This document shows, piece after piece, positions 32,894 to 49,932 of a stretch of 64,000 nt of DNA. The DNA comes from Escherichia phage vB_EcoM_CRJP21, in sequence record OQ708376.1; one strand, written 5' to 3'. The translations under genes and the position numbers were made by a program. Every line of letters begins with the position of its first letter. Positions within the stretch are counted from its first letter, which is position 1. Under the pieces are notes generated by a model, which ran no database searches, was not told the origin of the DNA, and saw nothing but the letters and a program-made list of their open reading frames with translations.

Positions 32894-33022
<129 letters not shown>

Positions 33023-33026
33023 AATA

Positions 33027-33103
33027 CGGGGTATAGCACAATTGGATAGTGCAAGAGAATTCTAATCTCTAGGTTGGGGGTTCAAGTCCCTCTACCTCGG
33101 CCA
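33027..33103 (+). tRNA. tRNA-Arg (anticodon TCT)
   Basis: Acceptor CGGGGTA / TACCTCG; D-stem GCAC/GTGC; anticodon stem-loop AGAGA-ATTCTAA-TCTCT; T-loop TTCAAGT; CCA encoded. Confidence 0.8.
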
Positions 33104-33126
33104 ATTTTAATTAAAGGTTAAAAACC

Positions 33127-33453
<327 letters not shown>

Positions 33454-33461
33454 AAAAAAAG

Positions 33462-33875
<414 letters not shown>

Positions 33876-33935
33876 CTAAATAATTCAGTACTGAGGATAT
33901 TAATATGTTTAAAGATGAACGTCCAGATTTGTAAA

Positions 33936-34066
<131 letters not shown>

Positions 34067-34069
34067 TAC

Positions 34070-34229
<160 letters not shown>

Positions 34230-34244
34230 CAATGCGAGGTATAA

Positions 34245-34502
<258 letters not shown>

Positions 34503-34510
34503 GAATTTAA

Positions 34511-34912
34511 ATGAAAAAGAATGACTTGATCAAAATGCTTCAAGAAATTGACGGCAATCCAGAGATTGTTATTTGGAATGGATACGTCGATGATTATATG
34601 AACATCGAAAAAGGCTTGACTAAAATCACTCTAGTCAAAGAAACCGAACAGTTTCTTCAGGGTGCATTAGAGCACGAATGGTGTGAACGTAACAATACAT
34701 TCGACATTCCAGAAGACCAACGAACCAAGATTGCAGAACGTGCTAAAGAACTGCATAAGAAACGCGAATACGATTTCCAGAACCCATATGTCACTGAAGA
34801 CGAATTCAATCGCTGGTACGGTAAAAAGAAATTGACAAAGTATGTCCTTTCACCTAAACTACGTGGTAAGACTTCACTTGGTGTATTCAACGCCGCAGAC
34901 TTAAACTACTAG
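34511..34912 (+). CDS. Hypothetical protein (133 aa); paralog of 34925..35140 at the N-terminus
   Basis: N-terminal MKKNDLIKMLQEIDGNPEIVIW matches MKAKDLIKILQNNPEADILIH in the next gene. Confidence 0.5.
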   Translation: MKKNDLIKMLQEIDGNPEIVIWNGYVDDYMNIEKGLTKITLVKETEQFLQGALEHEWCERNNTFDIPEDQRTKIAERAKELHKKREYDFQNPYVTEDEFNRWYGKKKLTKYVLSPKLRGKTSLGVFNAADLNY

Positions 34913-34921
34913 CGGGTATTA

Positions 34922-35471
<550 letters not shown>

Positions 35472-35531
35472 TACAACCGACAATGACGAAAGAACAGTTA
35501 TCAACATTTATCAACGCAGCATTAGATAAAA

Positions 35532-35563
<32 letters not shown>

Positions 35564-35615
35564 TACCAAGCAGCTTGAAGAACTTTGTAGTGCTGCACCT
35601 ATGCCGACTCTTGGC

Positions 35616-35716
<101 letters not shown>

Positions 35717-35728
35717 TATCTTACTTCT

Positions 35729-35818
<90 letters not shown>

Positions 35819-47088: not shown

Positions 47089-48054
47089 GTGAAAAAGCTT
47101 GATTTAAATACAATTGCCGAAGAAGTTCTGGATGAATGTTTTTCTAATGAAGAAGTCAACACACTAGAAGCCTTAGATTTCGTTGAAGATAAAGATGAAA
47201 ATGAAGGTAAAGTACAAAGCAGTTTCAAATATAATATTACACTTAAGCGACCACCAAATGTTTCCAATGAAGATCTAATTCGTGATATTCAAGCTGGTAT
47301 CAATGTAAAGAAAAACACTGAACTGTTAGTTCGTTACAATTATGGACTTATTATTGATGTAGCAAGTAAATGTACTTGTTATATCCCATTTGAAGATAAG
47401 ATTTCATATGGTGTTGAGGGGTTCATGAGAGCACTAAAAACCTTTGATCTTAATAAGAATGTGAAGTTCATTACCTATGCTTCTTCTAGTATTTACATGA
47501 CAGTTTATAACGAAAGTTCTGACGCTAACTATATGGTACACTTCCCACGTTATATGAGTGTTCATAAGATCAAAGTAAAAAGATTCTGTCAGGAATATAT
47601 GCGTAAACATGGTGTTCGCCCAACTCCTGAAATAATCTCAGAGGGTACTGGGATTGAGATTCAGCATGTTAATAACTGTTTGTTATTTCAAAGCGAATAC
47701 ACTTCTCTGGATGCACCATTAGACGGTGTTACCGATGGTACACTAGGTGACATTATTCATTCACCTGCTTCTGATTTTAACCTCAATGTTGATAGTATTC
47801 GTGCACCTTTACGTTATGCTATCAATGAACTGACTAACGAATTGAGTACTAAAGAACGTGAGATTATCCAGCGTGTTCATGGTCTAGGTGAATATGAACC
47901 TGAAACGCTTCGTGAGATTGCTGATAATGGTTTTGTTGATGATAATGGAAAATATGTTAAATCCCGTTCATCAATACACCGAAAGTACAGTGAAGCTATG
48001 CAAAAGCTTAAGAAGTTAGTACTTGCAAAAGGGTACGAATACGAAGATTTCTAA
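47089..48054 (+). CDS. Sigma-70-family RNA polymerase sigma factor
   Basis: Region 2-like LLVRYNYGLIIDVASK ... FEDKISYGVEGFMRALKTFD ... FITYASSSI and region 4-like LSTKEREIIQRVHGLGEYEPETLREIA ... SRSSIHRKYSEAMQKLKKL; GTG start behind AGGAG. Confidence 0.75.
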   Translation: MKKLDLNTIAEEVLDECFSNEEVNTLEALDFVEDKDENEGKVQSSFKYNITLKRPPNVSNEDLIRDIQAGINVKKNTELLVRYNYGLIIDVASKCTCYIPFEDKISYGVEGFMRALKTFDLNKNVKFITYASSSIYMTVYNESSDANYMVHFPRYMSVHKIKVKRFCQEYMRKHGVRPTPEIISEGTGIEIQHVNNCLLFQSEYTSLDAPLDGVTDGTLGDIIHSPASDFNLNVDSIRAPLRYAINELTNELSTKEREIIQRVHGLGEYEPETLREIADNGFVDDNGKYVKSRSSIHRKYSEAMQKLKKLVLAKGYEYEDF

Positions 48055-48063
48055 AGAACAAGG

Positions 48064-48090
48064 GTTGGCTTATGCCAACCTTTTTTTTAT
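48064..48090 (+). terminator. Intrinsic terminator
   Basis: GGTTGGC-TTAT-GCCAACC hairpin followed by TTTTTTTT. Confidence 0.75.
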
Positions 48091-48118
48091 GGGATGAAGT
48101 AAAAGTTTGTGATATAAT
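48090..48118 (+). promoter_or_regulatory. Promoter with extended -10
   Basis: TGTGATATAAT with a weak -35; would transcribe into the ORF-free GC-rich segment downstream. Confidence 0.45.
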
Positions 48119-48129
48119 TATCTTGTACA

Positions 48130-48600
48130 ATTCTGTTGGCATGATATTCATGTACCTGATCCACTCGAAAACGTAGAGGGCAGTTGAGCAGTCCGACAGT
48201 GCGAACAGCAAAAGAAACCCGTTAGATGTGGGCATAGTTTGAACCCCTCACGGCAATGCGGCTGTATAAAGAACCACGTTAGGATAGCTGGTGGTTCCTT
48301 GATAGACATATAAGGATAACACCTTACGAATTATCTAAGGGAGAGTTATCGAATTTTGTACAGGAAAGTTGCGTCCAAAATTTGAGTACTCACATTAAGT
48401 ATTTGATTGCATAGATACTTAATGAAGATACACTATGTTTAAAAGTGTAGACCGTCATATGAAACTGAAGTAGAGAGAAACAGGATGACCCGCTTTCGCA
48501 CTCGTTATGAGTAATCTTCAATGCAATAGCTCTGATACCATCAGCGTCAAATTTCCCTCCTTGTGGGGGGAAGAAAAATCCCTTCCTCAAATCCCGTCAA
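48130..48600 (+). ncRNA. Candidate structured noncoding RNA (GC-rich, ORF-free segment)
   Basis: About 470 nt with no plus-strand ORF; local GC around 47-52% (hand count on two 60-nt lines) against about a third genome-wide; hairpins such as GAACCAC ... GTGGTTC, TTAAGTAT ... ATACTTAA and TTCCCTCC-TTGT-GGGGGGAA; own promoter upstream and a separate promoter downstream. Confidence 0.35.
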
Positions 48601-48611
48601 TATTAAAAGTC

Positions 48612-48640
48612 CTTGACAGTTATTAATCATTCGCGTAGAA
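48612..48640 (+). promoter_or_regulatory. Sigma-70-type promoter
   Basis: TTGACA, 17 bp spacer, TAGAAT. Confidence 0.5.
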
Positions 48641-48705
48641 TACGTAGTATTAGAAGCGAACAGACATCTCGAAGAGATGGATGATTAACCATTAAGGAAT
48701 ATCAA

Positions 48706-48915
48706 ATGAATTCAGTAATCTTTTTAGTAGTCGCTTTCTCTGTTAATTCCGGTGTACAAATAACCCCAATGAATTCCATGAATCAATGCATAGCAGTACG
48801 TGATAGTACATACGAACAAGTAAACAAAGATATTTGGATTACAGTTAGTAAAGAACAAATGTGGTGTTACAATAGTAATACTAACACAAAGCTTATTGTA
48901 GGACAAACTCAATGA
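48706..48915 (+). CDS. Small secreted/membrane protein (69 aa)
   Basis: Hydrophobic N-terminus MNSVIFLVVAFSVNSGV; RBS TAAGGAA. Confidence 0.5.
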   Translation: MNSVIFLVVAFSVNSGVQITPMNSMNQCIAVRDSTYEQVNKDIWITVSKEQMWCYNSNTNTKLIVGQTQ

Positions 48916-49142
48916 GTTATGGCGTTCGTTTTGAGATTCGTTCTATTGTCATCAATGCAGAGAAACAAGTATCGTTGGATGGTGATATACGTGAAATTTA
49001 TCTATCATGTATCCGTGCGAAATCTGAAGCAGATGCCTTAGTACAAATGTATAGTTTTAACTTTTCAAATGGATTCTATTTGGTACGAGTTATTGAAGTG
49101 AAAAAAGTACTTATTGGTTGTAGCATAGAAGGATTAATGTAA
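48912..49142 (+). CDS. Hypothetical protein (76 aa)
   Basis: ORF overlapping the upstream stop. Confidence 0.45.
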   Translation: MSYGVRFEIRSIVINAEKQVSLDGDIREIYLSCIRAKSEADALVQMYSFNFSNGFYLVRVIEVKKVLIGCSIEGLM

Positions 49143-49143
49143 A

Positions 49144-49932
49144 ATGAGCACTATAGATGAACTGATTCGACGGAATTCAAAATATTACCAACCATCAGAA
49201 ATTGTAGGTAACATTACCAAATCAGAGTTTGGTCCAAATACTCGAAAACTCATTCATGTAATGTCACGTGATGGCTTTAAATGTGATTGTTGCGGTGAAT
49301 CTAATGTAGTATTCACTTTACACAAGCACAGTACTAAAGATCGTTATAAATTCAGACCTTATGTACTTAAAGGGAAACGCCTTGTACGCATGACGTTAGA
49401 CCATAATGTACTGGACTGTCTTCAGGGCGGTAATGATAAAGAGAACATGACTGCACTGTGTGAAGATTGTAACGCATTACGCCAGCATAAGTTTGCTGAA
49501 TACAGTGAGTTTAAACACTGGTATAATAACGCGGATCGTTCAATCGAGCCTGACGTTAACTACTGCTTCATTGAGTACATTAAGAATGCCAAAGATACAT
49601 ACATTCTTAAATCAATGTCACCTATTACCGTGTTTCCTGAGAACCTATTCACTACATTAAAGAATAGTTTTATTGTAGGTGATATTGATGCATTCAAGTA
49701 TTTTGACAAAGGTGCAAAACATTTTGAAATTCAATGTCTTAGTACTGCACTATGTGAACTCATTAAAATTTACATAAAAGAGTATTTGGGTATTGACAAT
49801 GTACGTGTACCAGAGTATACTTTTTCTATTGAATTCGATTGTGAATCAATCAAAGAGTTTGGAATTCTTTTCAATAAACAAATAGAACTTGCAATTCAAA
49901 ACGAAATCAAGTACTATACTACTAACATTTAA
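49144..49932 (+). CDS. HNH-family endonuclease (homing-endonuclease-like)
   Basis: FKCDCCGES ... TLDHNVLDCLQGGNDKENMTALCEDCNALRQH: paired CxxC with His/Asn core typical of HNH. Confidence 0.6.
   Translation: MSTIDELIRRNSKYYQPSEIVGNITKSEFGPNTRKLIHVMSRDGFKCDCCGESNVVFTLHKHSTKDRYKFRPYVLKGKRLVRMTLDHNVLDCLQGGNDKENMTALCEDCNALRQHKFAEYSEFKHWYNNADRSIEPDVNYCFIEYIKNAKDTYILKSMSPITVFPENLFTTLKNSFIVGDIDAFKYFDKGAKHFEIQCLSTALCELIKIYIKEYLGIDNVRVPEYTFSIEFDCESIKEFGILFNKQIELAIQNEIKYYTTNI

Follow-up and report, generated by a model that had tools for sequence, protein, structure and literature searches.

ColE1 RNA II is a structured transcript of ~550 nucleotides (nt) that is made from a sigma-70 promoter. An RNA gene of like length and promoter type lies in a 64,000-nt stretch of Escherichia phage vB_EcoM_CRJP21 (record OQ708376.1), the whole of which is referred to as the window and to which coordinates refer unless another record is named. 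The window comes from an Asteriusvirus, a jumbo coliphage of the 121Q/PBECO4/slurp01/SP27 kind, and positions 48060-48720 are 100% identical to slurp01 and SP27. Rak2-like jumbo phages (121Q, PBECO4, RaK2, GAP32, CBB and relatives) are widely isolated as candidates for therapy; a function has been assigned to only a minority of their genes. In PA5oct, a distant Rak2-related jumbo phage, RNA sequencing revealed four transcribed plus-strand regions of 236-619 nt that are free of open reading frames (ORFs), the long noncoding RNAs lncRNA001-004; two of the four are very abundant from early infection, and abundant lncRNAs make up 2-5% of the phage reads (PMC7318152). Pseudomonas islands of the I55 type, which carry an integrase and variable defence cargo and are without transfer genes, are proven satellites of jumbo phages, and in the searched text of the paper describing them no shared RNA is reported (PMC12595487). 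Here, window positions ~48125-48605 are described as one of four paralogous genes in a jumbo phage for a ~0.45-0.55-kb noncoding RNA of an undescribed family.

A multicopy RNA gene of Rak2-like jumbo phages

The unit extends over window positions 48108-48605 and consists of a conserved extended -10 promoter followed by an RNA of ~480 nt. The family profile (nhmmer) matches it over 48154-48617 (E=1.7e-104), the sole match in the window, and a covariance model of the 3′ core (cmsearch) finds it at 48434-48530 (78.9 bits, E=4e-15). With the core (48150-48600) as the blastn query, 61 phage records are matched at 254 places, each genome having 3-5 of them. Every one of these records is a Rak2-like jumbo phage, and the hosts are Escherichia, Salmonella, Erwinia, Yersinia, Serratia, Pectobacterium, Cronobacter, Xanthomonas and Klebsiella; a more consensus-like query reaches 70 phage records, nine Klebsiella phages among them. 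The complete genome of phage ECO103 4-12-1 holds exactly four copies on one strand, a count with which the covariance model agrees. Pattern scans together with the family profile gave 57 copies from IMG/VR and phage loci, 10 copies in GTDB species-representative bacterial genomes and 76 matches in 74 metagenome loci, and these counts are lower bounds because the scans demanded conserved sequence patterns. The collected set comprises 126 full-length sequences in ~22 clusters. In two metagenome contigs (L105 and L120) the profile matches are split and overlapping, with model positions ~204-239 matched twice, which suggests an internal duplication of the central region.

The first-pass annotation of the window, made from the letters alone, could not assign this segment to a known RNA family, and the search with covariance models agrees. 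Among the 4227 models of Rfam 15 (group I/II introns, RNase P, 6S, tmRNA, GOLLD, ROOL, OLE, HEARO, RNAI and T-box among others), only transfer RNAs (tRNAs) reach the gathering threshold in the window. At E<=10 the matches inside the element are chance matches of 12-19 bits, and in eight diverse members none falls inside it. Full-text literature searches found no description of this RNA. The family is new in the sense that it is absent from Rfam 15 and from the searched literature. What goes beyond the first-pass annotation is that the unit is multicopy, that it spans ~48108-48605 with a conserved 3′ module in addition, and that it also occurs in bacterial islands.

In phage genomes, neighbouring copies are separated by 44-112 kb. 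In 121Q they are near 90, 193, 248 and 327 kb (gaps of 102, 55, 79 and 112 kb), and in Yen9-04 near 25, 93, 174, 260 and 335 kb (gaps of 69, 81, 86, 74 and 44 kb). They are over-dispersed: by our own broken-stick estimate, a smallest gap this large would arise by chance with p ~0.02-0.05. The sequences cluster by position and not by genome, paralogues being 60-70% identical and orthologues across genera 75-90% identical and syntenic. In Yersinia and Serratia phages the counterpart of the window copy still lies near a sigma-factor gene, the product of which is 35% identical to the sigma protein of the window. The clustering by position and the kept synteny therefore indicate five ancient paralogues, each maintained separately; that is, the RNA has been kept at five positions since before the split of these phage genera.

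Gene conversion has acted on parts of the unit: the first ~190 nt are 85% identical among three paralogues. In phage UE-S1, the copy beside the sigma-factor gene (paralogue c1; locus L002 3086-3588) is a chimera in which the first ~170 nt are those of paralogue c2 and the remainder is c1, which indicates gene conversion between dispersed paralogues. The UE-S1 record annotates this chimeric copy in part, as a 'repeat_region'. The genes downstream differ between paralogue classes, and c2 and its 7t3 orthologue face convergent genes (endonuclease VII and baseplate hub). Comparison of the contexts of the paralogues revealed no conserved upstream or downstream protein partner of the phage copies.

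A covarying fold with three pseudoknots

The fold was curated from an all-against-all covariation scan and helix extension on an alignment (A3) of 46 non-redundant members (<96% identical, mean column identity 61%), and it comprises 16 helices, 70 pairs and three pseudoknots, PK-A, PK-B and PK-C. Standard pairs fill 98.3% of its cells, compared with 38-45% when the partners are slid by 1-3 columns. Changes on both sides are found at 52 of the 70 pairs (12-22 when slid), and the covariation score is 0.559 (0.06-0.10 when slid). On four of five measures all 500 shuffles fall short of the real alignment; the exception is the number of further pair types, which eight shuffles match or exceed. RNAalifold on 19 sequences likewise gave compensatory change in 48 of 81 pairs. 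Because the helices had partly been chosen on the A3 alignment itself, the fold was tested again on 20 unseen bacterial and metagenomic sequences, each <90% identical to any training row. In this hold-out set 97.4% of the cells are paired, against 38-46% in the slid controls, and PK-A, PK-B and PK-C are all 100% paired.

The pairing also bears on the level at which selection acts. G-U/U-G cells number 172 in the fold and A-C/C-A cells 10, so that selection acts on the plus-strand RNA and not on duplex DNA or the opposite strand. Some 130 positions are invariant in the 46 sequences, and these are largely unpaired. The single-sequence folding energy of the window copy is unremarkable (z=-1.76). 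The structured noncoding RNA that the first-pass annotation had proposed is thus borne out by strong covariation, hold-out sequences included, and we regard it as highly probable that the RNA is functional.

The window copy can form all 16 helices, PK-A, PK-B and PK-C included, each helix being complementary. In the 5′ part P1 is at 48161-48180, P2 at 48188-48202, P3 at 48205-09/48261-65, P4 at 48219-22/48250-53, P5 at 48271-48297 (GAACCAC...GTGGTTC) and P6 at 48311-48326. Further along, P7 occupies 48393-48424 (TTAAGTAT...ATACTTAA) and P8 48428-48450; P11 is at 48466-70/48516-20, P10 at 48473-48497 and P12 at 48500-48512, and P13 is formed at 48553-48572 by TTCCCTCC-TTGT-GGGGGGAA. The three hairpins picked out in the first-pass annotation are P5, P7 and P13 of this conserved fold.

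PK-A (48256-48309) joins ATG at 48256-58, in the internal loop between P3 and P4, with CAT at 48307-09. Its pair types are GC 36/AU 10 and UA 44/CG 2, with no exceptions, while the slid control in the unseen sequences gives 0-2%. PK-B (48406-48527) joins ATTGCAT at 48406-12, in the P7 loop, with ATGCAAT at 48521-27; its seven pairs are 99.7% paired with double changes at 7/7, and the pairing could be made within one molecule or between molecules. PK-C (48454-48489) joins GTCAT at 48454-58 with ATGAC at 48485-89 in the P10 loop. The usual pairing at this place, GUUGC/GCAAC in most members, is replaced by GUCAU/AUGAC in the window copy, a double change that is compensated.

Other candidate pairings were rejected. 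A 5′-3′ closing helix (GAUGAG/CUCGUC, or the leader UUGRC with GUCAR), suggested by RNAalifold and the minimum-free-energy fold, has one-sided changes that are uncompensated, and a GAUAG/CUAUC pairing from alifold with RIBOSUM is without support. On inspection of A3, the sequence CAGAUGAG-P2-CGAA, which recalls the hammerhead core CUGAUGA...GAAA, has A at U4, is variable at A6, is missing A14 and has no stem I. A tandem G.A motif at a three-way junction is the more likely reading of this sequence.

Promoter, leader, core and 3′ module

Upstream of the RNA, on the plus strand, a promoter can be read from the sequence at 48091-48118, with a -35-like GGGATG (48091-48096), 16 nt, and the extended -10 element TGTGATATAAT (48108-48118). 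This is the family's combination of an extended -10 with a -35 of the GAAAC/GGGAC type, and it is the promoter-like sequence that the first-pass annotation had pointed to after the sigma-factor terminator. The same kind of element, TGnTAYAMT (TGnTATAAT-like), lies within 150 nt upstream in 125 of 133 members, 99 of these 125 having a GAAAC/GGGAC/GGAAC-like -35 as well. Transcription would start near 48125, and both the transcription and the processing of the RNA gene are predicted. The CBB genome paper describes divergent RpoD-like promoters in which TGAAACG replaces TTGACA and which are enriched before DNA-synthesis genes (PMC5259590); by its sequence, the putative RNA promoter is of this same class.

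The 5′ leader (48127-48152, plus strand) holds the motif ACAATTCTGTTGGC followed by a small hairpin, CATGA-TAT-TCATG. The leader motif AAYYCTGNTTGRY (AAYUCUGNUUGRY) and a hairpin of variable sequence precede nearly all copies, bacterial ones included, and some paralogues have an additional hairpin and a U-run in the leader. The conserved RNA core (48155-48600, plus strand) begins at CCUGAUCC (48155) and ends with the tail CAAATCCCGTCAA at 48600. In about half of the clades, AUCAKCGUCAR is followed by a hairpin that resembles a terminator and has a U-run; the window copy lacks this hairpin. All members have the G-rich hairpin P13 and the invariant tail CAAAUCYCGUCAR.

A peripheral module in the window copy (48352-48382, plus strand; A3) consists of a stem, AATTTTG/CAAAATT, around TACAGGAAAGTTGCGTC. 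This ~30-nt module (GUACAAUAUAGAUCCGUCCAAAAUUUG) occurs, depending on the paralogue, at either of two sites (A3 columns 262-295 and 430-460), one of them inside P12, and sometimes at both, and it resembles a swappable peripheral element for tertiary contacts.

The 3′ module lies 40-130 nt past the core and comprises two hairpins, one long and irregular (GAAUUGAGUU...AACGAAAAUUC) and one of 9 bp (UUUGACAUUCGAAGAAUGGCAAA), the latter with covariation at 3 of its 9 pairs in other copies. The module motif ATTCTT[TA]GAC occurs 26 times in 412 kb of loci, 24 of the 26 downstream of the RNA. The possibility that the module is a general promoter was rejected, as the motif is almost exclusive to the RNA cassette and forms a covarying hairpin, not a -35 box. 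In the window copy the module is reduced and lies behind a sigma-70 promoter of its own; the counterpart of hairpin B of the module, as read from the letters, is AGAC-CATCTC-GAA-GAGATG-GATG at 48662-48683 (plus strand), in the 5′ untranslated region of the ORF at 48706-48915. A short motif, UCU..UUGAC, with a hairpin is found on both flanks of the RNA core in most copies (48127-48152 and 48662-48683 in the window). These flanking elements may be processing sites or the ends of the cassette.

Copies in integrase islands of bacteria

Among 5426 complete E. coli genomes, two have an intact 550-nt member (E=2.8e-118), which lies, between ffs and ybaA, in an island of ~10.7 kb. One island was compared with phage genomes, and no part of it but the RNA cassette matched them. 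Ten GTDB species-representative records have copies, nine of the ten from Enterobacterales (Citrobacter, Silvania, Enterobacter, Buttiauxella, Serratia and others), and nine of the ten copies are full-length, that of Serratia sp. L9 being partial. A 2.8-kb contig labelled Clostridium sp. UBA10317 (L081) carries a full-length copy of the island type and a tyrosine integrase fragment that is 87% identical to an enterobacterial one; it is probably a mis-binned enterobacterial contig.

The full cassette (promoter, core and 3′ hairpin module) occurs once per island and adjoins the integrase. In the GTDB copies and at least 13 metagenome contigs the layout is conserved: a large serine or tyrosine integrase is followed by the RNA in the same direction, then by a cI/LexA-like repressor reading back toward the RNA; genes for a Ner-like regulator and for a conserved protein of the membrane/coiled-coil kind come next and read onward. 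The islands exchange one type of integrase for the other and keep the RNA-cI-Ner block. The cargo is variable and defence-like (mSLOG-DUF4326, DUF488, DuOB, an ADP-ribosylglycohydrolase-like protein, a resolvase). Apart from a DUF4326 protein, no island protein has a homologue in the phage genome, and no replication, transfer or packaging genes are recognisable in the 8-15 kb of island read. Two ORF-free, relatively GC-rich stretches that are rich in GTAC/AGTACT hairpins flank the RNA in the E. coli LR-29-1 island (L067 11264-11694 and 12549-13257) and may be additional noncoding elements.

Island copies form clusters of their own that are interleaved with those of phage copies, an arrangement that indicates repeated exchange between phages and islands. 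The E. coli island copy is 80% identical to the copy of Serratia phage BF, and one 'island-type' copy lies inside a 349-kb phage contig. Judged from these comparisons, the cassette moves between phages and integrase islands, and the RNA that they share hints at a link between Rak2-like phages and possible satellites.

The locus in the window

Upstream of the RNA lies a sigma-factor gene (47089-48054) with the Pfam domains Sigma70 r2, r3 and r4. It is followed by an intrinsic terminator (48060-48083, plus strand), found by a terminator scan as a 10-bp stem and a T-run and annotated as a terminator in phage G17, so that this part of the first-pass annotation stands. The terminator is outside the RNA unit and is its upstream boundary. 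Also as that annotation had it, the segment is GC-rich and poor in plus-strand ORFs. In 100-nt windows the GC (guanine plus cytosine) fraction is 0.49-0.50 at 48150-48299 and 0.44 at 48450-48599, with ~0.30-0.35 in the flanks, and 48090-48700 is overlapped by only two ORFs on the plus strand (34 and 39 amino acids, aa) and three on the minus strand (53-75 aa), none of the five having a Pfam match. In every record looked at, the RNA unit is unannotated or lies under spurious short ORFs. Several GenBank genomes place 3-5 short 'hypothetical protein' coding sequences across the RNA gene, on one strand or the other, and there is hardly any doubt that such calls are spurious.

Downstream of the RNA, the independent promoter noted in the first-pass annotation is present at 48613-48641 on the plus strand (TTGACA-17-TAGAAT, 11/12 positions). 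It is a separate sigma-70 promoter for the downstream ORFs and is specific to the window paralogue. The HNH endonuclease gene that the annotation placed further on is an ORF of 262 aa (49144-49932) that is HNH-like by annotation in related records. It has no Pfam match, although a DHN...N...CxxC motif is present, and the implied link to the RNA is not supported: both this ORF and the 76-aa ORF preceding it are missing in phage ECO103 4-12-1, which makes the HNH-like gene an optional insertion that is no partner of the RNA. The two ORFs (48912-49932) constitute a ~1-kb presence/absence polymorphism: the window, G17 and UE-S1 have them, ECO103 4-12-1 does not. Endonuclease-like ORFs also lie within ~1.5 kb of c2, c3 and c4 in ECO103, two of the PD-(D/E)XK/Zn-ribbon type (318 and 261 aa) and one of the HNH type (203 aa), as typed from motifs read by eye and not by domain searches. 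They may reflect homing beside a conserved RNA gene, or chance.

ARAGORN finds no tRNA or tmRNA gene at 47500-49500. Six tRNA genes at Rfam gathering score lie at 32933-35807, 12 kb upstream of the RNA; with the nearest tRNA cluster at this distance, the RNA does not adjoin a tRNA array, unlike GOLLD and ROOL. A group I intron was considered and rejected, as the element lies past the stop codon and terminator of the sigma-factor gene, has its own promoter and interrupts no gene, and the flanking genes differ between paralogues.

Possible functions of the RNA

What the RNA does can be approached from where its copies lie, from what the islands carry and from the fold. Tentatively, we favour the reading that the RNA acts where it is made, as a cis-linked handle of a phage genome-propagation function. 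In its most likely form it would be a pre-primer or R-loop RNA that marks replication origins, like ColE1 RNA II and the T4 origin transcripts, and the jumbo genome would carry one origin-marking unit every 50-110 kb. Islands without rep or transfer genes would carry a matching copy, and an infecting Rak2-like phage would replicate or mobilise them as satellites. Rather more doubtful is the wider proposal that a large pseudoknotted RNA serves as the cis signature for multi-site replication or propagation and has been copied by islands, which would make it an RNA-based means of helper-satellite recognition; in a possible variant the RNA would be a ribozyme of a new kind or an assembly made of RNA alone.

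Action in cis is favoured because each position has been kept separately over the long term and the copies are over-dispersed. It is also favoured because, in the single island compared, phages share no DNA but the cassette, because the island stretches read showed neither replication nor transfer genes, and because phages and islands have exchanged the cassette repeatedly and its promoter class is linked to DNA-synthesis genes. Precedents add to this, both the ColE1 RNA II and T4 origin transcripts and the Pseudomonas islands that are satellites of jumbo phages (PMC12595487).

Several points weigh against an origin-marking handle. Transcription, R-loops and origin activity are predictions drawn from sequence, and the islands are taken as satellites of these phages by analogy. 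The ~130 invariant, largely unpaired positions and the three pseudoknots are more typical of ribozymes, riboswitches and ribonucleoprotein or RNA-only particles than of primer RNAs. GC/AT skew over the whole ECO103 genome follows gene orientation, has no feature at the four loci and gives no information on origins; the co-orientation of the copies is equally uninformative because almost all genes are on that strand. With a copy number of 3-5, not every position is indispensable. The terminator-like hairpin inside the unit in about half of the clades is unexplained by an origin model. In addition, a blastn search of 72,556 PLSDB plasmids at E<0.01 gave no match that would link the RNA to ColE1 relatives, and no RNAI match was found.

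Hardly less possible, and likewise tentative, is a trans-acting RNA particle, which we weigh almost equally with the cis-linked handle, the latter being slightly ahead. The RNA would be released, fold into a compact pseudoknotted core, possibly oligomerised through PK-B, and act elsewhere in the cell, in the way of GOLLD, ROOL and OLE. Its task there could be catalysis, as a ribozyme, or the binding or sequestering of a conserved factor of host or phage. Several gene copies would serve dosage, and an island would exploit the phage function, or interfere with it, through an RNA version of its own. The same invariant unpaired nucleotides and pseudoknots that fit poorly with a primer fit this alternative, as do the flanking hairpins, which look like processing or stabilising elements, and the lack of a conserved neighbouring protein gene in phages and of any protein shared by islands and phages except the unrelated DUF4326. 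The c2/c1 chimera in UE-S1 implies that paralogues are at least partly interchangeable, and the related PA5oct makes abundant lncRNAs, though without detectable homology. Pure dosage copies, however, might be expected to show concerted evolution, whereas the paralogues show none and five positions are kept individually. PK-B is not orthogonal between paralogues of one genome (several are identical), so that there is no sign of specific homo- or hetero-oligomer sets, and the E. coli genome has no complementary or similar sequence besides the island copies and offers no partner or target.

It is unlikely that the RNA gene is mainly a selfish or target sequence, a conserved landing pad or moving cassette with homing endonucleases beside it and of little use to the phage. 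HNH or PD-(D/E)XK-like ORFs, typed by eye or by GenBank annotation, do lie within ~1.5 kb of c1 (in the window only), c2, c3 and c4, and the presence/absence polymorphism of the HNH-like gene near c1, the sharp cassette borders with similar short motifs at both ends and the sporadic occurrence in E. coli (2/5426 genomes) would agree with such a role. Purifying selection on >70 base pairs and ~130 invariant positions across genera, however, implies that the RNA itself needs a function; its positions are syntenic and not scattered, and these phages have so many homing endonuclease genes that proximity may be chance.

A cis-regulatory leader, that is, a giant riboswitch-, T-box-, put- or nut-like control of downstream read-through or translation, is about as improbable. 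The order of promoter, structured RNA, terminator-like hairpin (about half of clades) and conserved 3′ hairpin just before the ribosome-binding site of varied genes recalls such a leader, and the same 'aptamer' ahead of unrelated genes is a riboswitch-like pattern. Yet c2, its 7t3 orthologue and most island copies face convergent genes, so that a co-oriented ORF under their control is lacking, an independent sigma-70 promoter comes after the window copy, and the invariant P13 and tail come after the terminator-like hairpin. As for size, this RNA is two to three times as large as any known riboswitch. Finally, the remains of a protein gene, a fragment acquired from a host or an element acting as DNA alone, among which is the other possibility that the first-pass annotation had offered (a decayed acquired element or frameshifted remnant), are rejected as very improbable, even with a GC content above that of the surroundings and several GenBank records with 3-5 short 'hypothetical protein' ORFs over the RNA, since more than 120 full-length copies exist, indels are not multiples of three, stem substitutions are compensatory and not codon-like, the overlapping ORFs have no Pfam match or similarity to host genes, E. 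coli chromosomes match the RNA gene nowhere but in intact island copies of it (the check for host-derived fragments suggested with that annotation gave nothing else) and the G-U to A-C ratio of 172 to 10 shows selection on the RNA of one strand.

Few RNAs of 0.5 kb have three pseudoknots proven by covariation, and here a complete cassette is common to phages and chromosomal islands. If the cis-linked replication or hijack handle is true, it would for the first time link jumbo phages of enterobacteria to candidate satellites at the molecular level, and the movement of islands without transfer genes would become testable. If action in trans is true, the RNA would be a new member among the handful of large structured RNAs of obscure biology, in a genetically tractable E. 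coli-phage system.

Comparison with known RNAs and satellite systems

The origin transcripts are close in several respects. Like ColE1 RNA II and the T4 oriF and oriG transcripts, the RNA would be a ~0.5-kb transcript made from a sigma-70-type promoter by host RNA polymerase, as its sequence suggests. As with ColE1 RNA II, its structure is kept by compensatory change, it is found in Enterobacterales, and structured hairpins lie just downstream. An origin transcript of the ColE1/T4 type would suit both elements without a replication protein and a large T4-like genome with several sites. The RNA differs from ColE1 in that its conservation and its pseudoknots go far beyond what is known of RNA II, and no promoter for an antisense like RNA I was seen in the promoter scan.

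The lncRNAs of PA5oct are without detectable homology to this RNA. The family profile (nhmmer) finds nothing in lncRNA001 or lncRNA002, and the covariance model of the 3′ core domain finds nothing in any of the four; its sole match, elsewhere, has 15.8 bits and E=0.9, and a very remote relation is possible. The I55-type islands differ from the enterobacterial islands in host, integrases and gene content, and it is by analogy only that the latter are likened to satellites. HEARO, the omega-RNA of IscB, is alike in being a structured RNA of a few hundred nt near an HNH-type ORF. Here there is no match to Rfam HEARO, and the 262-aa ORF is without a Pfam domain, lies downstream but not adjacent and is absent in ECO103 4-12-1.

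The ornate RNAs GOLLD, ROOL and OLE (PMC12286853) share with this RNA a length of >400 nt, many conserved helices, long-range pairings, a link to phages or mobile elements and the lack of an adjacent partner protein, and the kissing-type helix PK-B could mediate oligomerisation. Unlike them, it has no Rfam match, it occurs in Gram-negative jumbo phages as 3-5 diverged copies at fixed positions, and it adjoins an integrase in islands. With >400 nt, covarying helices, pseudoknots and no coding capacity, the RNA is a member of the ornate large RNAs as a functional class, which is not a statement of homology.

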